This document shows positions 38,348 to 47,702 of a stretch of 64,000 bases of DNA, one piece after another. The stretch covers positions 1 through 64,000 of IMG/VR virus record IMGVR_UViG_3300045539_000120, one strand, 5' to 3'. The translations under genes were made by a program, and so were the position numbers. Positions within the stretch are counted from its first letter, which is position 1. Each line of letters begins with the position of its first letter. This stretch comes from a virus. The notes below the pieces were generated by a model, which had not been told where the DNA came from, did not search any database, and saw only the letters and a program-made list of their open reading frames with translations.

Positions 38348-39088
38348 TTATTTTTTCTCAAATGTAGGTTTTAACCACATACCATCTTTAAAAACAAGAT
38401 TTAAAAATCCTGGAATAACTTGGTCAATATCTACCAATAATCTAAGACTTCTTGGAGTATCGTGTGCCATCATTTTAAATATTTCTTCTCTAATTCTTTG
38501 GCCGCTTACGGTTTGCTCAAGTTTCTTCAGGATGTTTGGTTGTTTCATTGCCTCCCAAATATCATCACTCATAATGAAATCCTTTGTAACTGTAAATCTC
38601 AATGCTCTTAATATTCTTAATGGGTCATCCATTAGGGTAACTTTAGCATCCATTGGAGTACGTAAAATACCAACCTTTAAATCTTCAATACCTCCAAAAA
38701 GATCAATAATGTTTCCATCAATATCTTCTGCTAAGGCATTTAAGGTAAAATCTCTACGAAGTAAATCATCTTCTAAAGTACCTAATTCTAAGATTGGTCT
38801 ACGAGTTCCTTTCGTGTAACCTATTTCCTTACGAGCCATTACAAAATCTGCAACCAGTCCTGCAAATTGATGGTCCTTTGGAAACTTGGCGCGAATTGTA
38901 AAACAATCTGGAGTACTTAAGAATATTTCAAATCCTTGGTCCGTCATCCAGTTCGTCATGATTTGAAAACCATCTTCAACTGTAAATCCTTTGGTATCTT
39001 CTAATACGAATGTGAAATCTATATCTTTGGAATCTACACCAAGGAATTTATCCCTGATGCAACCTCCTACTTTAAATATTTTTGCCAT
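38348..39088 (-). CDS. tRNA nucleotidyltransferase (CCA-adding enzyme / poly(A)-polymerase head-domain family), minimal form
   Basis: VGGCIRDKFLGVDSKDIDF (GGxVRD...DxD) and RRDFTLNALA motifs; start placed at MAKIFKVGG. Confidence 0.7.
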   Translation of the reverse strand: MAKIFKVGGCIRDKFLGVDSKDIDFTFVLEDTKGFTVEDGFQIMTNWMTDQGFEIFLSTPDCFTIRAKFPKDHQFAGLVADFVMARKEIGYTKGTRRPILELGTLEDDLLRRDFTLNALAEDIDGNIIDLFGGIEDLKVGILRTPMDAKVTLMDDPLRILRALRFTVTKDFIMSDDIWEAMKQPNILKKLEQTVSGQRIREEIFKMMAHDTPRSLRLLVDIDQVIPGFLNLVFKDGMWLKPTFEKK

Positions 39089-39095
39089 TTTTATC

Positions 39096-39449
39096 TTAAT
39101 TAAATAAGGTACTTGGTGCACCTACGTTATACATTAAACTTGCGAAGAATTTAAAACCTTTATATGAAGTTCCATCCGCACTTCCAATTGCATTCATTAA
39201 ATCATTACCTACAAATGCCTGAACAAATCCACCTCCTTGATAACCAACCCCCCATTTTGTACAAAGAATCGATGTACCTATTTGGATAATATGATTCTTT
39301 TCAGATTCTGGTAATTCAGATAAATTTAACCATTGAGCATTTTCAGCAAAATAATTAGTTACTACTTCTTTTACGATTTCAATTTGGTCTACTGTGTTCA
39401 TATTGTTTATGTTTTTAATTATAATGTAAATATAACTAAAAAAAGCCAA
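39096..39449 (-). CDS. hypothetical protein
   Basis: 117-aa ORF. Confidence 0.4.
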   Translation of the reverse strand: MAFFSYIYIIIKNINNMNTVDQIEIVKEVVTNYFAENAQWLNLSELPESEKNHIIQIGTSILCTKWGVGYQGGGFVQAFVGNDLMNAIGSADGTSYKGFKFFASLMYNVGAPSTLFN

Positions 39450-40466: not shown

Positions 40467-40979
40467 TTATTTTCCAATAAAAAGATAATCTTTCCACTCT
40501 TCTGGAATATGGTCAATAGTTTTCATTAACATCAAATAATGTGGTCTCTTTGGATTTGGAATTTCTTTACCATATTCCTCAAGGCTAAGATCTGCCTTTT
40601 CACCATTACATTTTCTGCATGCTGTAACAAGATTCTCCCAACTGTTTGGTCCACCCTTACTTTGTGGAATAACATGGTCAAGTGTTAGTACCTTTCTATT
40701 TGTTTGTCCACAATAAACACATGTCCATTCATCTCTTTTAAATACATTATCTCTGGTTAATGGAACACTCACATGTCTAGTATTTACATACTTAGGAACT
40801 CTAATGATAGATGGTTTGTGTAAAATAACAGTAGGATCGCACATATTAAATGTTGCATCATGGTTTTGAACAATACTAGCGTTTCCCTTATACACAATGA
40901 CAAAGGATCTTAAGCTACTAATAATACTACGAGGAATATAGCTTGAATCTAACACTAATGTTTTTGAATATTTGTCCAT
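40467..40979 (-). CDS. HNH endonuclease
   Basis: CVYCGQ...LTLDHVIPQSKGG...WENLVTACRKCN. Confidence 0.75.
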   Translation of the reverse strand: MDKYSKTLVLDSSYIPRSIISSLRSFVIVYKGNASIVQNHDATFNMCDPTVILHKPSIIRVPKYVNTRHVSVPLTRDNVFKRDEWTCVYCGQTNRKVLTLDHVIPQSKGGPNSWENLVTACRKCNGEKADLSLEEYGKEIPNPKRPHYLMLMKTIDHIPEEWKDYLFIGK

Positions 40980-41095
40980 GTTTTTATTTAATAGTATAAC
41001 ATATTGGTAATAATTTGGGTGTAAGGACGGTACCGCCCCGTCTTCTCAAGATTCACAGTCTTGCACTTCACTAAAAAGCTTCGAACACCATATAA

Positions 41096-41152
41096 TTTGG
41101 GAAACGGTAGGATTCGAACCTACGAAGACCTCCGTTGTCTCATTTCCCCTTT
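41096..41152 (-). tRNA. tRNA-like minihelix (~54 nt: acceptor stem + 4-bp hairpin + canonical T-arm, no D-arm)
   Basis: minus strand GGGAAAT-GAGACAACGGAGGTCTTC-GTAGGTTCGAATCCTAC-C-GTTTCCC-A; 7-bp acceptor with one G-U. Confidence 0.3.
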
Positions 41153-41514
41153 GTACCGACTACAAGTTACGCTCTTGTCTGAAAATACTTATGAGATATT
41201 TTCGATCCTAGATCAAGTCGGCAATTATACTCCATACCCATCACGTTAAGGCTGATTATGGGCGACGCAACCTACGGTCAACTTTCGTTATGGAGTTTGC
41301 GGAAAGCAGAGGTATCGATCCCCATACCATTAAAGGTACGATTCGCTTAGCAAGCGGTCCTGAATCCTATTCAGTTTACTTTCCATTTAGAGAGACTTTG
41401 GGTCTTTCAGGGTTACTGGTTAAATGCAATGAGTGAGCTCTTCCTACTACTAACCCTTTTTCAGAAATTAATACACTCTACCTTTTAACTACAGCTTAAA
41501 CTGTCTCTCTATTG

Positions 41515-41594
41515 TACCCAGGGAGAGACTCGAACTCTCAAGCTTTCGCCACGGCTTCTAAGACCGCTGTGTCTACCAATTCCACCACCAAGGC
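41515..41594 (-). tRNA. tRNA-Leu(TAG), type II
   Basis: T-arm GAGAGTTCGAGTCTCTC, acceptor GCCTTGG/CCTGGGT (one mismatch), anticodon loop CTTAGAA, variable hairpin GCGAAAGC. Confidence 0.6.
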
Positions 41595-41691
41595 ATAAAG
41601 CCAATCCCGTAGATTGGCCGCTCAACTTAAGGTATTGAGTTTGCAAGAATAAATCTCTGACCAGGTCATGCGTCCTTTGGGCGCCGACAGT

Positions 41692-41763
41692 GACCCCGGT
41701 GGGACTCGAACCCACGACTCCCTGATTAAAAGTCAGGTGCTCTACCAACTGAGCTACGAAGTC
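41692..41763 (-). tRNA. tRNA-Lys(TTT)
   Basis: acceptor GACTTCG/CGGGGTC, D-arm GCTCAGTTGGTAGAGC, anticodon loop CTTTTAA. Confidence 0.8.
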
Positions 41764-41820
41764 TTGCCTTTTTTAGAGTTTTTATAGAACTCAAGGATAG
41801 TACAACCTATAAACTAAAGT

Positions 41821-41892
41821 AGCGGGTGAGGGACTCGAACCCCCGACCTTAAGCTTATGAGGCTCACGAGATACCAACTTCTACCAACCCGC
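41821..41892 (-). tRNA. tRNA-Met(CAT)
   Basis: acceptor GCGGGTT/CACCCGC, anticodon loop CTCATAA. Confidence 0.6.
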
Positions 41893-41903
41893 AATATATC
41901 TTG

Positions 41904-41975
41904 TAGTCAATAAAGGACTCGAACCCTTATTCCCGAGTTCGTAGCCCGGTGTTCTATCCATTGAACTAATCGACT
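41904..41975 (-). tRNA. tRNA-Arg(ACG)
   Basis: acceptor AGTCGAT/ATTGACT, anticodon stem CCGGG/CTCGG, loop CTACGAA. Confidence 0.75.
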
Positions 41976-41977
41976 AA

Positions 41978-42054
41978 TGGTGGTCCATTCAGGACTCGAA
42001 CCTGAGACCTACTGATTATGAGTCAGGCGCTCTAACCAACTGAGCTAAAAGACC
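41978..42054 (-). tRNA. tRNA-Met or tRNA-Ile2(CAT), CCA encoded
   Basis: D-arm GCTCAGTTGGTTAGAGC, anticodon loop CTCATAA, 3' ACCA. Confidence 0.65.
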
Positions 42055-42059
42055 ATTAA

Positions 42060-42470
42060 ATAATAAGTTGTTCCATACCGAACTATTAGGAACTATTAGG
42101 GCTTCTCGGACGAGGTGCACAACCCATAACGGCTATGATATGTTCTCTGTTACTTGGCTCCACCTACATGGATTAATCAGGAATCGAACCCACCTAATCG
42201 ATATATGCCTATATCAATGTTCACAGCATATCAACTTATCATTTTGCACAAGCAGAAGGGGTCGAACCTTCATCATCGGTTTTGGAGACCGGTATGCTAC
42301 CATTGCACCATACTTGTATTTTGTGGGAGATTATGGAATCGAACCATACCCTCTTACAGAACGATTTTACAGACCGCTTACATCACCAGATGCTGAAACC
42401 TCCCAAATTTAACTACCACCTGACTCCTTTCGAGCAGTGGAAACTCGTATCATTCAATTTTGGTAGTTAG
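42060..42470 (-). tRNA. tract of tRNA-like elements and fragments with aberrant arms
   Basis: several minus-strand T-loop signatures (RC of ggaatcgaacc, ggtcgaacc, ggaatcgaacc) without canonical full cloverleafs on hand-folding. Confidence 0.3.
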
Positions 42471-42471
42471 C

Positions 42472-42545
42472 TCCCCAGCTAGGACTCGAACCTAGGACCC
42501 CCTGATTAACAGTCAGGTGCTCTAACCAACTGAGCTACTGAGGAA
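42472..42545 (-). tRNA. tRNA-Asn(GTT)
   Basis: acceptor TCCTCAG/CTGGGGA, anticodon loop CTGTTAA, T-arm CTAGGTTCGAGTCCTAG. Confidence 0.8.
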
Positions 42546-42780
42546 TATTGTTGACTAATAAGGATTTGAACCTTAATCCTGTGTCCGCCCTCAGTCACTT
42601 CCGTACTTACTAACTTCTACTGTGCACCATACACCATAATCATTCCGAATGTTTCGAACCATTCAGTCTTAAGATTAATTACTTCTTAAGATTTGTTGCG
42701 ATTAGAGGAATCGAACCTCTCAGTGGTATATCTACCAAATCGTCTCATGAGAACGAACCTACACCGATATCGCAATTTAG
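42546..42780 (-). tRNA. tract of tRNA-like elements
   Basis: includes acceptor+T-arm minihelix TGACTGA...TAAGGTTCAAATCCTTA-TTAGTCA; a perfect 8-bp palindromic hairpin TCTTAAGA-agtaattaa-TCTTAAGA; further T-loop-like motifs. Confidence 0.3.
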
Positions 42781-42782
42781 TG

Positions 42783-42856
42783 TCTTTACATGGGATTCGA
42801 ACCCATACTCTTCGGGCTCAGTGCCCGCGTTCCAAACCAAGTTAAACTACGTAAAG
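42783..42856 (-). tRNA. tRNA-Gln(CTG)-like (4-bp anticodon stem)
   Basis: acceptor CTTTACG/TGTAAAG, anticodon hairpin CGGG-CACTGAG-CCCG, T-arm TGGGTTCGAATCCCA. Confidence 0.4.
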
Positions 42857-42954
42857 CAATCAATTAAAATTACAGAAATTAGTGTCGACAAATTTCTTTA
42901 AGCTATATGTAATCTTAATCGTTAGGAAGATATTGCTGATCAGGCATCTTCTTT

Positions 42955-43062
42955 GTAATTATGATTGGATTCGAACCAATTTCAGCTTTACAATAAAGAG
43001 TATATTTCAACTCAACCTTTGTGAGGTGCCGCCAACCAATGGCCTCATAATCATTTGTGGAT
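42955..43062 (-). tRNA. tRNA-like element with long extra arm and no readable standard anticodon
   Basis: acceptor GATTATG/CATAATT (G-U at bp 1) and T-arm ATTGGTTCGAATCCAAT. Confidence 0.25.
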
Positions 43063-43547
43063 AGAAACCAGACCTATCCTAGAGCTGCAGCTCTGTTATA
43101 ACTTATGCATCATCCTCAATGCTTCAACCCTTTGGCTATTACGGGTGTGGACTCGAACCACATTTTTCAGTTACCTATGCTTTTTCAAACTTGGTTTTAG
43201 TTGCTTTCCTTGCGCAAGGTTCATAACTAATTTCCAGTATCACCACGAGGAGGTGTTTGATTGATACCGCTACGCTTCGTTGGTACTTGCCGTTTCTTAA
43301 GTCGACACTTTCCCCGTTGCACGTTTTATTTAAGTGTACTTCCCTACTAGCGTCCTTGAAGCCAACACTTTTTAATTTGAGCTGCCTTATTACTAAGGTT
43401 TCGGATCGCATCTTTGATTAGGTAGCGAACCTATCATTAACGTCTCAAAGTAATTGTTAGTCTTTTCCTTACCTCTTAATAATTACACTGCCCGTCAGAT
43501 GTTACTGTCTGATGCTTACCAATCATACTGGGGTAATTATTAAATTG

Positions 43548-43619
43548 TAACGCCACGGAGAATCGAACTCCGATTTTTAGGATGAAAACCTAATGTCCTA
43601 ACCGTTAGACGATGGCGTC
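43548..43619 (-). tRNA. tRNA-Glu(TTC)
   Basis: acceptor GACGCCA/TGGCGTT, anticodon stem TTAGG/CCTAA, loop TTTTCAT, T-arm CGGAGTTCGATTCTCCG. Confidence 0.7.
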
Positions 43620-43651
43620 ATTTAAATTATTATCAAGATGTCAAATAACGT

Positions 43652-43727
43652 TTGTTCTAATTTGTTATGTAAATATAACTATAATATTTGAACCATGAAA
43701 ACTTTTTTCCAAAAGTTATTAACAATT
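43652..43727 (-). promoter_or_regulatory. conserved intergenic element copy heading a tRNA operon
   Basis: tgtcaaataacgtttgttctaatttgttatgtaaatataactataatatttgaaccatgaaaacttttttccaaaagttattaacaat; nearest downstream minus-strand feature is tRNA-Glu, no ATG. Confidence 0.5.
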
Positions 43728-43731
43728 TTTG

Positions 43732-43803
43732 AGCGACTAGAGAGAATCGAACTCTCATCTTCAGATTGGAAGTCTGAAGTAATGACCATTATACGATAGT
43801 CGC
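43732..43803 (-). tRNA. tRNA-Gly(TCC)
   Basis: perfect acceptor GCGACTA/TAGTCGC, anticodon loop CTTCCAA. Confidence 0.8.
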
Positions 43804-43812
43804 ATTGTATTG

Positions 43813-43901
43813 TGCAAGAAGCTGGGATCGAACCAGCGGCACGTCCATGTTCCTTCCAACCGAAGTACTGGGGATTGCTCTACCAACTGAGCTATTCTTG
43901 C
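43813..43901 (-). tRNA. tRNA-like gene with canonical acceptor, D- and T-arms but expanded, unfoldable anticodon region (possible Tyr-GTA type or pseudogene)
   Basis: acceptor GCAAGAA/TTCTTGC, D-arm GCTCAGTTGGTAGAGC, T-arm GCTGGTTCGATCCCAGC; 39 nt between D- and T-arms contains CAGTACT. Confidence 0.35.
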
Positions 43902-44044
43902 ATTTGGGTAGGTCAGAGGCCTTCTGCCTACCGAGACCTCGTCGTTGAACTTCTGGAAGCCAGAGCGTACCGAGACACTTTTTAAATAAAAATCAGGATC
44001 GGTTTGTTTTTAGTGCTCTACCAACTGAGCTACTTGCTTTTCAT

Positions 44045-44115
44045 CAAGATACACAAGGTCGGATTCGAACCGACGACCACTGCTTTAAAAGAGCTGTTTG
44101 TTACTGTTTGCTGTA
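44045..44115 (-). tRNA. tRNA-like element (T-arm GTCGGTTCGAATCCGAC)
   Basis: T-arm plus CTTTTAA-like loop, but stems not canonical. Confidence 0.25.
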
Positions 44116-44136
44116 ACGATCCTTATTATTTTATTG

Positions 44137-44209
44137 AGCTTCTGACCGGGTTCGAACCGATGACATCTTCATTACAAGTGAAGTGCTCTACCAACTAAGC
44201 TACAGAAGC
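44137..44209 (-). tRNA. tRNA-Thr(TGT)
   Basis: perfect acceptor GCTTCTG/CAGAAGC, anticodon stem CTTCA/TGAAG, loop CTTGTAA. Confidence 0.8.
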
Positions 44210-44271
44210 AAATTAGAGTTTTCGTATTATTAAAGCCAATACCCGGAATAATCTCTCAACCAAAACACTAG

Positions 44272-44342
44272 TCCCCTCAGGTGGAATCGAACCACCGCCA
44301 ATTGCATGTAAAACAATTACGCTACCATTACGCCATGTGGGG
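44272..44342 (-). tRNA. tRNA-Val(TAC)
   Basis: acceptor CCCCACA/TGAGGGG (one A-A mismatch), anticodon stem ATTGT/GCAAT, loop TTTACAT. Confidence 0.6.
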
Positions 44343-44401
44343 AATTCTAATTCTACGCTCACAATATGTAGTTCTATGAATTAGTAACAGTCTCGTCTGT
44401 G

Positions 44402-44472
44402 TCTAATAGGCAGGATTCGAACCTGCGTACTCCTCAGTCCAAGTGAGGCATGTGACCTAGCTTCGCTACTAG
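44402..44472 (-). tRNA. tRNA-Pro(TGG)-like
   Basis: acceptor CTAGTAG/CTATTAG, perfect anticodon stem CCTCA/TGAGG with loop CTTGGAC; D-arm atypical. Confidence 0.45.
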
Positions 44473-44483
44473 AAATTTAATTT

Positions 44484-44562
44484 GTTGCCTATGAAGGTAC
44501 TGACCCTCCTCCGATGCTGTCAAAGAGCATTGTACCACCTTTATACGAATAGGCAAAAAGTT
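44484..44562 (-). tRNA. tRNA-Gln(TTG)-like with aberrant T-loop (probable pseudogene)
   Basis: acceptor GCCTATT/CATAGGC, anticodon hairpin ATGCT-CTTTGAC-AGCAT; T-loop lacks the TTCGA motif. Confidence 0.3.
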
Positions 44563-44566
44563 TCAG

Positions 44567-44639
44567 TGGACCCTACAGGAATCGAACCTGTTCCTCTAGT
44601 TCTTCAGACTAGCGTACGCACCAGCTATACCAAAGGTCC
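44567..44639 (-). tRNA. tRNA-Phe(GAA)
   Basis: acceptor GGACCTT/AGGGTCC, anticodon stem CTAGT/ACTAG, loop CTGAAGA. Confidence 0.75.
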
Positions 44640-44655
44640 ATCTATTATTACCAAT

Positions 44656-44750
44656 ATGTCAAATAACGTTTGTTTTAATTTCTTATACAAATATAACTAT
44701 TACATTTGAAATAAAAAAACTTTTAATGTTAAATTTATGTTAACATTTTT
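44656..44750 (-). promoter_or_regulatory. degenerate element copy heading a tRNA operon
   Basis: atgtcaaataacgtttgttttaatttcttatacaaatataactattacatttga...; shares an extra 5' segment (tgtcaaataacgtttgtt) with the 43652 copy. Confidence 0.4.
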
Positions 44751-44751
44751 G

Positions 44752-44822
44752 AGTTCAGTATTGGAATCGAACCAATATCTCAGAGTTTGCAATCCTGCGC
44801 CTAACCATTCGGCCAACCGAAC
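44752..44822 (-). tRNA. tRNA-Cys(GCA)
   Basis: acceptor GTTCGGT/ACTGAAC, anticodon loop TTGCAAA (as in E. coli tRNA-Cys), T-arm ATTGGTTCGATTCCAAT. Confidence 0.6.
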
Positions 44823-45125
44823 TTGTAAAATCAAAAAAGGACCAATCATTTCTGAAAGGTCCTTTTGAATATATTATATGTTAATAGCGCTTAGCTCATA
44901 CTAACATTTCTTTTTTCAAAAAGACCAACTTGCTTCCATTCATTATAAAAGGGACATATCGTGCCAACCATTCCTAGGACCGGTTGAAAACTATTTATAT
45001 GTTGCTGAGTTGTTTGCATTTTAATTGTTTTGTTCTTAATAAACAAGAGCGTTAATGTTCTTGTGTTAATTATATATCTATATATCTTTTTGTTTCAGTG
45101 AATTCACACTTTATTTAAATTATTT

Positions 45126-45413
45126 TCAAAAAAGTTCATTTCCATGATTCTTTATTATCTTTATGATAATATCTCCATGACATGGGCCTGGTTTGCACCA
45201 ACATCCAAGTGTCTTTCCTTTTAATTCTTGTAAACTTTCCATCAGTTCACTATTTGAAAGTAGATATTTTTCATATGCACTTATTGCTTCCTTTATTGTG
45301 TTTACTTTAAATTCTGCAAGTGTTCCATCTTTATGCGAATATGGATTTCCCCAAATACTTGGCCTTCCGATATAAACATCGTATGGTTCTTTATTTATAT
45401 GTACTACTTTCAT
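45126..45413 (-). CDS. DUF4326-like protein
   Basis: GRPSIWGNPY ... CWCKPGPCHGD pattern. Confidence 0.5.
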   Translation of the reverse strand: MKVVHINKEPYDVYIGRPSIWGNPYSHKDGTLAEFKVNTIKEAISAYEKYLLSNSELMESLQELKGKTLGCWCKPGPCHGDIIIKIIKNHGNELF

Positions 45414-45416
45414 TTG

Positions 45417-45490
45417 TGATTCGGACAGGATTCGAACCTGTGGCCTACGGTTTAGAAAACCGTTGCTCTATCCGGCTGAGCTACCGAACC
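45417..45490 (-). tRNA. tRNA-Arg(TCT)
   Basis: acceptor GGTTCGG/CCGAATC, anticodon stem ACGGT/ACCGT, loop TTTCTAA. Confidence 0.8.
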
Positions 45491-46177: not shown

Positions 46178-46675
46178 TTATTTTTTAATTTCTTTCATTT
46201 TTTCTATAGCCCAATCGACTCCTTCATCTCCACCCCATAGTAACCAAGCAACGTATCCTCGGTCTTTCCATGGAGTGTCTTTATATTCGGGTGCAATTGT
46301 AGAATTTTTGCGATGTCTATTAAATTGTGCAATACGTGAAACTACATCTGCTGAAAGTTTTTCACCTTTAGATAATTGGCTTGCACGTTGCCATCCTACT
46401 GGAGTACCTGCATCAACTTCATCTCTACCATATTCGTCTCGCCATTCAATTGCCTGTTTTGCATTTTTCTTTGCGGCTGCAGGATAATCGCCATACGTTT
46501 CTTCTGCCTCATTTAAGGACTCTTCAACTTTTATTTCAATAGGGGAATTATCATGGCCACATTCATGGCAAATAAATGGATCTTCTCCACCATCTTCTAA
46601 TCTCCATTTCCAACCACAATTATCGCACTGTACTTGATTTGCTGAAAATTCGTCAAATAATTTTATTTTTTTCAT
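46178..46675 (-). CDS. hypothetical protein with zinc-ribbon; shares its N-terminus with the next two genes
   Basis: MKKIKLFDEF...CDNCGW...CHECGH. Confidence 0.45.
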   Translation of the reverse strand: MKKIKLFDEFSANQVQCDNCGWKWRLEDGGEDPFICHECGHDNSPIEIKVEESLNEAEETYGDYPAAAKKNAKQAIEWRDEYGRDEVDAGTPVGWQRASQLSKGEKLSADVVSRIAQFNRHRKNSTIAPEYKDTPWKDRGYVAWLLWGGDEGVDWAIEKMKEIKK

Positions 46676-46688
46676 AATTTAATACACT

Positions 46689-47702
46689 CTATTTTACCGA
46701 AATAGGATCTAAACTTGATTTATATTCTTCAGGATATTCACTAGCCATCATGCTTCTATGTTTATTTACAATTTCTTGTAATTCTTCTTCGCATTCTTTA
46801 GATATATCAATACCTAATGCCATTTTTTGAAATGATTTGTAAATTGAAAGAAACATTGATGGTCCAATTCCTGGAGCTCCATTAATTTCTGGTACCCATA
46901 AAGCACCTGATTTATCTAGGATTAAATCAATATTATAAAATTCAAGTTTAACACTCTTATTAAGTTCGTCCATGATTTCATTGATTCTATCAATATGTTC
47001 AAATGTTTCTAGGTTCTGATCAAAATAAACAAGGTCTATTTTCTCATCTATTCCTTTTTTACCAACTGACATATCATTATTCGCATTAGTAATTCTTTCA
47101 GCGATATGAATAACCTTTTTATCCATTATAAATGCACGAAATTCACGATCTATTTCTTTACCTTCTTGCCAAACATCAAACGTTGATTTACTCTTTTTAG
47201 CATCATCGTATGTATCAAATTTCTCAATACCTTGTGCACTGAAACCTTGTGATGGTTTTGCAATTATTGGCAAATCTAAGTTTTCAATATCATCTAATGA
47301 ATATACCGTCTTTGGAATAAAATTAGTATTTGGGAAAGTTTTATAAAATAATTTTTTATCAGCACTTAATTGCAAATCTTCAATTTTATTATAAACCTTT
47401 GCTTGCATATCAGATACAAAATTATGATCCGTAGAAGTAAAGTTTAAAAGTGGAACATTGTATTTAATTTTATTAAATCTTCTATTGCCTGGTATTCTGT
47501 CTTCTCTATTATATTCATCACTTCCATCAATCAAAACCATGTGGATATATTTGTCATAAAGTGTTGCCATTAATTCTTTGGTAAAATCTTCAGTTTTAGA
47601 AGTTAAACCAATAGTTCCTCTTAATGTGATTTGTAATTGTGGGATTTGGTCGTCGATGTATCTTTCATTTAAGAACTCCTCGAATAATTTGATTTTTTTC
47701 AT
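46689..47702 (-). CDS. ATP-grasp-fold ligase-like protein (paralog A)
   Basis: PIIAKPSQGFSAQGIEKF (nucleotide-binding loop-like) and EINGAPG near the C-terminus; N-terminus MKKIKLFEEF. Confidence 0.5.
   Translation of the reverse strand: MKKIKLFEEFLNERYIDDQIPQLQITLRGTIGLTSKTEDFTKELMATLYDKYIHMVLIDGSDEYNREDRIPGNRRFNKIKYNVPLLNFTSTDHNFVSDMQAKVYNKIEDLQLSADKKLFYKTFPNTNFIPKTVYSLDDIENLDLPIIAKPSQGFSAQGIEKFDTYDDAKKSKSTFDVWQEGKEIDREFRAFIMDKKVIHIAERITNANNDMSVGKKGIDEKIDLVYFDQNLETFEHIDRINEIMDELNKSVKLEFYNIDLILDKSGALWVPEINGAPGIGPSMFLSIYKSFQKMALGIDISKECEEELQEIVNKHRSMMASEYPEEYKSSLDPISVK

Follow-up and report, generated by a model that had tools for sequence, protein, structure and literature searches.

Several kinds of RNA beyond the standard tRNA are already known from phage tRNA clusters, namely (8/4) tRNA-Ser, atypical phage tRNAs and stable RNAs such as T4 rnaC and rnaD or GOLLD. 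The (8/4) tRNA-Ser was reported in bacteriophage tRNA clusters by Mukai et al. 2017 (PMC5389517). In T4, rnaC and rnaD (species 1 and 2 RNAs) are small and stable, with lengths of 119-139 nucleotides (nt); they lie on the tRNA strand where the cluster ends on its 3' side, directly next to the final tRNA (gaps of 1 and 6 nt). The cluster also holds a homing endonuclease gene, and rnaC ends in a tRNA-like T arm. GOLLD and ROOL are phage-borne structured RNAs of 400-800 nt that typically adjoin tRNA genes. Theta ribozymes, which are minimal ribozymes resembling that of the hepatitis delta virus (HDV), likewise adjoin phage tRNA genes, and a role in tRNA maturation has been proposed for them (Kienbeck et al. 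2024, PMC10879173). Finally, Fremin et al. 2023 listed 8,495 unnamed candidate RNAs from IMG/VR. Here we describe a tract in the IMG/VR virus record IMGVR_UViG_3300045539_000120 (positions 1 to 64,000, the whole 64,000-nt stretch analysed, termed the window), which derives from a large, AT-rich, uncultured phage. Between positions 41018 and 41510 the minus strand of the window carries a pseudoknotted RNA termed X125, a tRNA-like minihelix, three atypical tRNAs and a further unit of 76 nt.

We regard it as quite likely that this tract forms the 3' end of a polycistronic tRNA array on the minus strand and consists of six tiled RNA units, which would be released by tRNA processing. The six RNA-sized units tile the tract completely on the minus strand with spacers of 3-10 nt. 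ARAGORN with default settings calls none of the tRNA-like units. At relaxed settings (80% thresholds) the program calls His(GUG), Met(CAU) and Ser(GCU), the latter at 41299-41384. Relaxed ARAGORN is noisy and yields 31 extra calls in the window; three tiled same-strand calls within 514 nt are reached in none of 200 shuffles of the tract, for which the mean is 0.13. An Rfam scan, proposed in the earlier note and run at a permissive E-value, returns three minus-strand tRNA-like matches in the tract and nothing else. All of them stay below the threshold of the canonical tRNA model (RF00005, 29 bits), with 28.1 bits for tRNA-His, 21.2 bits for the minihelix and 16.8 bits for tRNA(CAU), and the Ser(GCU) unit is unreported. 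The canonical layout, comprising a 7/5 branch, G18G19 in the D loop and T54-Psi55-C56...A58 in the T loop, is not found in the tRNAs of the tract; the T loop of the minihelix alone is canonical. Covariation in related phages, which the earlier note had put forward as a check, takes the form of compensatory changes in four of the six units. Three independent assemblies (NCBI GCA_050043635.1, ENA ERZ27272076 and JGI 3300034022) agree over the entire tract with 100% identity, which rules out an assembly artefact; the near-identical contigs L138-L140 show zero variation in the tract.

Contigs compared here carry L numbers. Relatives traced through the tRNA nucleotidyltransferase (CCA-adding enzyme) gene are IMG/VR contigs, the complete-looking ones being mostly 160-430 kilobases (kb) long. 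In the window this gene lies at 38348-39121 on the minus strand (Pfam PolyA_pol match), about 2 kb downstream of the tract, and its nearest homologues in cultured phages, annotated as phage tRNA nucleotidyltransferases, are only 46% identical.

The minihelix (41099-41148, minus strand, 50 nt) is the unit that the earlier note had recognized as a tRNA-like molecule lacking a D arm, and this description holds: the minus strand reads GGGAAAUG / AGAC-AACGGAG-GUCU / UC / GUAGG-UUCGAAU-CCUAC / CGUUUCCC, and the Rfam tRNA model aligns to it (41099-41147) with the D and anticodon arms deleted. The acceptor stem proposed at the time, GGGAAAT/GTTTCCC, is real; its register is one base off the tRNA convention. 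In the tRNA-conform register the acceptor is GGAAAUG/CGUUUCC and stacks directly on the T stem, and both registers fall within a single 8-bp helix, G-1..G7 / C66..C73, which corresponds to a 7-bp acceptor plus a G-1:C73 pair. Its acceptor and T arm form a continuous helix of 12-13 base pairs (bp), capped by a canonical T loop. With sequence patterns, the minihelix was retrieved from 15 further contigs of IMG/VR and JGI metagenomes (16 with the window), which represent eight distinct sequences. Throughout these, the 8-bp terminal helix including position -1:73 is paired in 100% of cells, and six of its eight pairs have changed on both sides, as in the variants GGGAAAUG/CGUUUCCC, AAUCAACG/CGUUGAUU and GGAAGAUG/CAUCUUCC. 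The 8-bp and 5-bp helices together are 98% paired over the eight sequences, and the T loop reads UUCGAAU. The -1:73 pair is G-1:C73 in six and A-1:U73 in two of the eight.

The origin of the minihelix is indicated by full-length tRNA-Ser(UGA) genes retrieved with a relaxed pattern, in which GAGAC-N7-9-GUC followed by the same T arm constitutes the long variable arm. The small hairpin of the minihelix is, judged by this sequence match, homologous to the long variable arm of tRNA-Ser. Moreover, its acceptor and T-arm sequence is identical to that of tRNA-Ser genes of other phages, and the minihelix is therefore a tRNA-Ser derivative that has retained the acceptor, variable and T arms but not the D and anticodon arms. 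The element is near-invariant among contigs whose adjacent tRNA-His genes differ considerably, which argues that it is selected rather than decaying. It always starts 4-5 nt past the 3' end of a tRNA, and in the window and 10 other contigs a tRNA-His follows 10-12 nt downstream (ARAGORN coordinates). No tRNA-His follows in L222, L287, L295, L296 and L300; L095 is devoid of the minihelix, and L146 and L107 carry unrelated inserts in that slot.

Decoding by the minihelix is implausible. In a D-armless tRNA that decodes, the anticodon arm would have about 5 bp, and its 7-nt loop would present U33 and a usable anticodon. The hairpin of the minihelix comprises 3-4 bp and a loop R-A-M-G-G-(U)-R-G (8 nt in L124) with A at position 33, and a side hairpin of this length cannot bridge the distance from the acceptor end to the codon. 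D-armless mitochondrial tRNAs differ in this respect, since they keep a 5-bp anticodon arm and decode. The closest likeness is found in synthetic acceptor/T-arm minihelices, with which the minihelix shares the coaxial acceptor/T helix of 12-13 bp, the canonical T loop and the missing D arm. Histidyl-tRNA synthetase (HisRS) charges 13-bp minihelices with G-1:C73, and serine identity derives mainly from the variable arm (PMC9976931). By analogy, charging of the minihelix by seryl-tRNA synthetase (SerRS) or HisRS is conceivable. No natural phage or bacterial counterpart was found in the literature searched. Two further candidates were discarded. The minihelix is not an attP-like 3' fragment of a tRNA, because its 5' strand covaries with its 3' strand, and a Shine-Dalgarno mimic in the hairpin loop was rejected: GGAGG occurs in four of the eight distinct sequences and is broken in L124, L222, L287, L295 and L300.

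What the minihelix retains of a tRNA is precisely the acceptor, T arm and variable arm, the decoding parts being gone. It, and possibly X125 as well, might serve as an anti-defence decoy, which mimics the acceptor/T-arm face of tRNAs and soaks up tRNA-targeting nucleases of the host or other immune effectors that bind tRNA. The strong purifying selection on the minihelix and the altered T loops in several tRNAs of the clade would fit such a role, and phage tRNA arrays are thought to counter tRNA-cleaving defences. However, most known tRNA-targeting defence nucleases cut anticodon loops, which are absent from the minihelix, and the minihelix shows no linkage to a defence or anti-defence gene. 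We consider a decoy function unlikely.

X125 occupies positions 41389-41510 on the minus strand (122 nt from P1 to P1; covariance-model match 41386-41513). Its terminal stem P1 (41503-41510 with 41389-41396) encloses P2 (41484-41494, with a UA bulge at 41490-41491, paired with 41416-41424) and P4 (41463-41466 with 41441-41444); in the family P1 comprises 8-9 bp and P4 4 bp. A 6-bp pseudoknot, P3 (41451-41456 with 41410-41415), is formed by the P4 loop GAAAAA-GGGUUA-GUAGUA and the sequence UAACCC directly 3' of P2. All four helices covary. The unpaired segments are highly conserved; the joiners read AGUGAAG and UGAAAGACCCGAA in the family consensus, and AGUUUAAG and UGAAAGACCCAAA in the window copy. 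The 32 sequences of the seed alignment, A3, show pairing in 95.4% of cells and changes on both sides in 18 pairs. None of 500 column shuffles matches these values, and slid partners pair in only 40-52%. RNAalifold recovers P1, P2 and P4 independently. For a second, independent set, A8, with 55 distinct sequences, pairing in P1, P2a and P3 amounts to 96.8%, and 138 cells show double changes. An alternative pairing of GGGUU with GACCC is ruled out, because changes in the 5' strand are compensated solely in the AACCC partner. Minimal forms of about 97-100 nt (e.g., L032:16222-16320), in which a single hairpin replaces the middle domain, retain P1, AGUGAAG, CUG/CAG, the loop GAAAAA-GGGUUN-NUAGUA, the pseudoknot and YGAAAGACCCGAA.

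The covariance model R1 was built from the 32 seed sequences and scores the window copy with 141.8 bits over model positions 1-127, a value that arises partly by construction, as this copy belongs to the seed. A 21-nt degenerate core pattern matches 53 IMG/VR contigs, and a 19-nt pattern from the 3' core (CAGNAACCYYGAAAGACCC) matches at least 119. Full-length R1 matches of 25-153 bits were obtained in 60 of 69 newly fetched loci, which are independent members. At least 110 contigs of uncultured phages carry a member of the X125 family, which usually sits tightly between tRNAs. A tRNA ends 1-7 nt upstream of X125 in 21/53 and 21/60 copies of two separate samples, and a tRNA starts 4-10 nt downstream in 23/53 and 34/60 copies. 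These flanking tRNAs have many different identities, which together with the tight spacing argues that X125 is an independent cassette in a tRNA slot. In the window the upstream neighbour is tRNA-Leu(UAG) (41514-41594, minus strand), and P1 begins 3 nt past its 3' end.

X125 matches no Rfam family, neither in the window at E-values up to 10 nor at the loci of four other members at E-values up to 1; Y RNA-like, GOLLD and other families were specifically considered and rejected for the tract and these four loci, and GOLLD has no Rfam match anywhere in the window. A blastn search against 50,697 GenBank phage records revealed nothing significant. Five pattern matches in contigs of metagenome-assembled genomes fail the X125 model, and an apparent second copy at 46668-46691 is a chance 24-nt match within a coding region. 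In comparison with Rfam 15 and the literature searched, the X125 family and the armless, tRNA-Ser-derived minihelix appear undescribed, the candidates of Fremin et al. lying outside that comparison. The closest positional analogues of X125 are T4 rnaC and rnaD, with which it shares the small size and the place on the tRNA strand. X125 is set apart from them by the covariation-supported pseudoknot, by its occurrence in at least 110 uncultured phage contigs and by its location at any position of an array; with R1 and filters off, the T4 tRNA region scores 12.7 bits at best, and elsewhere than in rnaC or rnaD, so homology to these RNAs was rejected. GOLLD and ROOL resemble X125 as phage-borne structured RNAs that adjoin tRNA genes, yet they are several times longer than its 97-130 nt.

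A variant of X125 was observed in L086, L100, L101, L102 and L106 (also in L092, L094 and L133), which are the nearest relatives of the window by CCA-enzyme identity. It has a longer and different P1 (UUACCAA/UUGGUAA), an insertion before GAAAGACC and no tRNA flanking it upstream; an odd "tRNA-Pro(AGG)" is called 43 nt downstream in L086, L100, L101, L102 and L106. In a related phage contig, a GOLLD RNA (L108:758-1169, minus strand; RF02032, 257 bits) shares the tRNA array with an X125 copy, and a tmRNA lies at L015:592-959, in an overlapping stretch of apparently the same phage.

X125 might alternatively be a self-cleaving ribozyme of a new class, which cuts at its own end and thereby matures the adjacent tRNA. 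Theta ribozymes beside phage tRNAs provide a precedent for a small structured RNA in this position, and the compact pseudoknotted fold with its highly conserved unpaired segments, as well as the tight abutment to tRNAs (1-7 nt and 4-10 nt), would suit a catalyst. Yet, the helix order P1-P2-P4-P3-P4'-P2'-P3'-P1' differs from the nested double pseudoknot of HDV (P1-P2-P3-P3'-P1'-P4-P4'-P2'), so that X125 is not an HDV-like or theta ribozyme, and no Rfam ribozyme family, HDV included, matches the tract or (at the thresholds given above) the loci of the four other members. Furthermore, the ends of the flanking tRNAs are obtainable by ordinary RNase P cleavage and 3' trimming, and many copies have no detected tRNA on one side. 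A ribozyme that matures its neighbours is rather improbable.

The remaining units are the three atypical tRNAs and the 76-nt unit. Together with X125, the tRNA(CAU), the 76-nt unit and the tRNA-Ser make up the approximately 350 nt that the earlier note had treated as a single candidate structured RNA; that suspicion is borne out for X125 with its strong covariation and fails for the stretch as one element, the four units being separate in other phages. The tRNA-Ser(GCU) (41300-41384, minus strand) was identified by the relaxed ARAGORN call, by homologues and by its RNAalifold fold. Its acceptor comprises 8 bp and its T stem 4 bp; the D stem of 6 bp closes a loop of 3 nt, the variable arm is long, the T loop reads AUCGAUA and the discriminator is G at 41300. 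A pattern search found homologues in 31 IMG/VR contigs, and the aligned ones carry solely serine anticodons (GCU, UGA, CGA and GGA). For 19 homologues RNAalifold pairs columns 1-8 with 82-89 and 67-70 with 78-81, which is an 8/4 fold, and adds a D stem of 5-6 bp and a long variable arm whose stem covaries; 18 of the 29 pairs are compensatory. Using blastn, the unit also matches unannotated DNA in tRNA regions of Acinetobacter T4-like phages. By structure and anticodon, the unit belongs to the already described (8/4) tRNA-Ser class, since it shares with (8/4) tRNA-Ser and allo-tRNAs (PMC5389517) the 8-bp acceptor, the 4-bp T stem, the long D stem, the long variable arm, the Ser anticodon and G73. 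A minor difference is the anticodon stem, which has only three clean pairs. None of the other units in the tract falls in this class.

The tRNA(CAU) (41154-41222, minus strand) is of the Met or Ile2 type and constitutes the third CAU species in the window, the two others being canonical. Its D stem comprises 4 bp and its D loop 3 nt; the anticodon stem is 8 bp and the variable region 2 nt long, and the T loop reads AGCGUAA. Across orthologues the connector is 1 nt and the D loop 3-4 nt long. Its minimum-energy fold is the cloverleaf (z = -2.5). In an alignment of nine orthologues, drawn from the window and L095, L107, L111, L124, L146, L176, L177 and L181, 99.5% of cells are paired and nine pairs have changed on both sides. 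Starting from the canonical UUCAACU (L124), the T loop has drifted through AUCGUUA to AGCGUAA in the window. The Ser and CAU units are conserved tRNA genes of non-canonical shape. Between them lies the 76-nt unit (41223-41298, minus strand) with an 8-bp terminal stem, ACUCCAUA/UAUGGAGU. In the relatives L095 and L124 the tRNA-Ser is joined straight to the tRNA(CAU), without the 76-nt unit, which may be either a lineage-specific insertion or a degenerate tRNA.

The tRNA-His(GUG) (41018-41089, minus strand; Rfam match 41018-41088) has the least certain status of the three tRNAs. A hairpin noted earlier at 41027-41048 is real and represents the T arm of this sub-threshold gene, just outside the tract as then delimited. 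The tRNA has G-1:C73, a perfect anticodon arm and the 7/5 layout, by which it differs from the (8/4) tRNA-His of Mukai et al. 2017. Identity to its sequence is 100% in L146, 98.6% in L206 and 95.8% in L095; in the last of these, U5-A68 is re-established by a single change. Canonical tRNA-His genes occupy the syntenic position in L107, L111, L124, L160 and L222, so the gene of the window is a derived form. His is the sole amino acid without a called tRNA among the 24 of the window, which argues that this gene is functional.

Directly 5' of G-1, a leader ending in UAUAU (41090-41094) is kept in all relatives, with or without the minihelix; it may bear on the unusual -1 cleavage of tRNA-His by RNase P. 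In several tRNAs at 41017-41384 and in relatives the T54/Psi55 consensus has been lost independently (AUCGAUA, AUCGUUA/AGCGUAA and GGCGGUA), and the D loops have shrunk. Orthologues of these tRNAs are canonical in other contigs. This pattern of sequence change suggests a relaxed or altered constraint on the tRNA elbow in this phage clade.

The tract might also be viewed as a graveyard at the end of the array, where decaying tRNA pseudogenes and spacer owe their GC content to tRNA ancestry and no functional RNA is made. At default thresholds neither ARAGORN nor Rfam accepts any of the four tRNA-like units, T and D loops depart from the canonical form, the acceptor of tRNA-His has two mismatches, the 76-nt unit is without a homologue, and relaxed ARAGORN also makes about 20 spurious calls elsewhere in the window. 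Against decay stand the compensatory double substitutions and 95-100% pairing in X125, tRNA-Ser, tRNA(CAU) and the minihelix. In addition, the minihelix is better conserved than the adjoining canonical tRNAs, and the (8/4) tRNA-Ser family carries Ser anticodons exclusively. For the tract as a whole this explanation is very improbable; it is plausible just for the 76-nt unit and, less so, for tRNA-His.

A tmRNA or the remnant of a group I intron had been considered as well. Rfam yields no intron match at E-values up to 10 in 40900-41700 and no tmRNA match in the tract, and default ARAGORN shows no intron signal in the tract and no tmRNA in the window; a permuted "tmRNA" called in the tract at relaxed settings is dubious, and an intron-containing tRNA called there was judged spurious. 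That the tract is a single long structured RNA of this or a similar kind, or encodes a 62-amino-acid (aa) plus-strand protein, is hardly credible despite the continuous GC elevation, these two relaxed calls and the existence of the open reading frame (ORF) at 41061-41249, since Rfam shows tRNA-like matches only, the fold of the entire tract does not surpass those of shuffled sequences (z = -0.5), the units occur apart and in other orders in other phages, and the ORF runs antisense to three RNA units that vary compensatorily at the RNA level.

The setting of the tract is that of an array end. Default ARAGORN detects 24 tRNA genes in the window, 22 of which are also supported by Rfam, and 19 of the 24 form one minus-strand array at 41514-45490. 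These tRNAs are encoded on the minus strand, which places the tract downstream of them, at the array's 3' end, rather than upstream as had been stated. It is bordered by the tRNA-Leu(UAG) gene on one side and by an HNH endonuclease gene (40467-40979) on the other. A sigma-70-like promoter, TTGAAA-18-TATAAT, is predicted at 45529-45500, immediately 5' of the first tRNA of the array, and no terminator-like site was found within the tract. The earlier observations on composition and coding are correct: the 62-aa plus-strand ORF is the sole ORF of at least 60 aa in 41060-41510 (a 79-aa minus-strand ORF at 41509-41748 merely overlaps tRNA-Leu), and the GC content is 0.40-0.44 over 41000-41500 compared to 0.25-0.36 in the flanking genes. 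The elevation is equal across the entire array (41000-44700).

If the tract is the terminal part of the array, transcription from the array promoter would cover all its units, and the tRNA-maturation machinery of the host would excise them. RNase P cleavage at the 5' end of the next tRNA would set the 3' boundary of each unit, and 3' trimming of the preceding tRNA its 5' boundary. CCA is encoded by none of the RNA genes of the tract, and hence the phage nucleotidyltransferase would be the enzyme that adds it to the minihelix and the tRNAs. Decoding would be done by the Ser and CAU units and probably also by the His unit, which would serve AGY-Ser codons, provide a third CAU species and supply His, respectively. 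The minihelix would most likely act as a non-decoding tRNA mimic, i.e., as a substrate or competitor for factors that read the acceptor, T and variable arms; candidate readers include the CCA-adding enzyme, SerRS, HisRS and tRNA-directed nucleases. X125 would be a stable protein- or ligand-binding or catalytic RNA, for which the array serves as a vehicle for expression and processing.

A further-reaching possibility, which we put forward tentatively, is that X125 represents a new class of functional RNA (a self-processing ribozyme, a ligand- or protein-binding module, or an effector of the tRNA machinery), and that the minihelix is the first natural armless tRNA mimic outside mitochondria. X125 would then have been inserted into tRNA operons by large phages and be freed by RNase P and 3' trimming, and the minihelix would be CCA-tailed, perhaps charged by SerRS or HisRS, and act as a decoy, sponge or amino-acid donor.

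Several points weigh against the reading of the tract as a processed array of functional units. We infer co-transcription and RNase P-dependent release solely from the spacing of the units. About one third of the X125 copies have no detected tRNA within 30 nt; some of these flanks may contain atypical tRNAs missed by ARAGORN. Furthermore, no ORF family is common to more than 11 of 53 X125 loci, and therefore no protein partner is indicated. There are just eight distinct minihelix sequences, and their discriminator is C or U, not the G73 of tRNA-Ser. The 76-nt unit folds weakly (z = -0.9) and has no homologue in any fetched locus. Finally, tRNA-His has two adjacent acceptor mismatches (U5-U68 and C6-U67), lacks G18G19 in its D loop (UUUUAGUGA) as well as T54, Psi55 and A58 in its T loop (GGCGGUA), and could be a decaying copy, a chance that is appreciable though clearly the smaller one.

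The rest of the array is similarly rich. All six other inter-tRNA gaps tested (95-689 nt) are conserved in relatives, either wholly or in blocks. A second acceptor/T-arm minihelix at 42552-42597 (minus strand) reads UGACUGA, 15 nt, UAAGG-UUCAAAU-CCUUA and UUAGUCA; it lies 7 nt upstream of tRNA-Asn, is unrelated in sequence to the first minihelix, and the surrounding gap is conserved in L095, L148 and L222. The 95-nt "spacer" between tRNA-Lys and tRNA-Leu (41595-41689, minus strand) is 81-98% identical in 15 related loci and, judging from this conservation, is probably another unannotated RNA unit. Two minus-strand stretches free of tRNAs are conserved as well, one (42858-43546) in blocks of about 50-210 nt and the other (44823-45415) nearly over its full length in L095 and L222; the sole Rfam hint in either is a weak match to HDV-F-prausnitzii at 43204-43267 (18.5 bits, E = 4). 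In the gap between tRNA-Tyr and tRNA-Thr, 44012-44081 (minus strand) shows a sub-threshold match to the tRNA-like module of YrlA, a Y RNA-like RNA (35 bits; cut-off 69), and relaxed ARAGORN calls a tRNA-Lys-like gene at 44051-44127. A tRNA-sized unit at 42695-42775 (minus strand), with the acceptor UUGCGAU/AUCGCAA, the T arm AGAGG-UUCGAUU-CCUCU and a CUCAUGA loop, is called by neither tool and conserved in several relatives. In the near-identical assembly L140, a 37-nt insertion after window position 43068 contains the T-arm-like GGTTCGAATCC, which suggests that tRNA-like pieces were gained or lost in this array very recently.

The annotation of phage tRNA arrays is commonly limited to what tRNAscan or ARAGORN call; in the array described here, conserved RNA genes fill the "gaps". 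Estimates of the tRNA repertoires of phages are affected accordingly, as His is supplied in the window only by a sub-threshold gene. X125 is pseudoknotted and widespread; its structure is well supported, and it has no entry in Rfam. The minihelix is a naturally selected combination of acceptor, variable arm and T arm, which resembles the minimal substrates that biochemists have used for RNase P, the CCA-adding enzyme, SerRS and HisRS. Together, X125 and the minihelix could bear on how phages manipulate or protect the tRNA machinery of their hosts.

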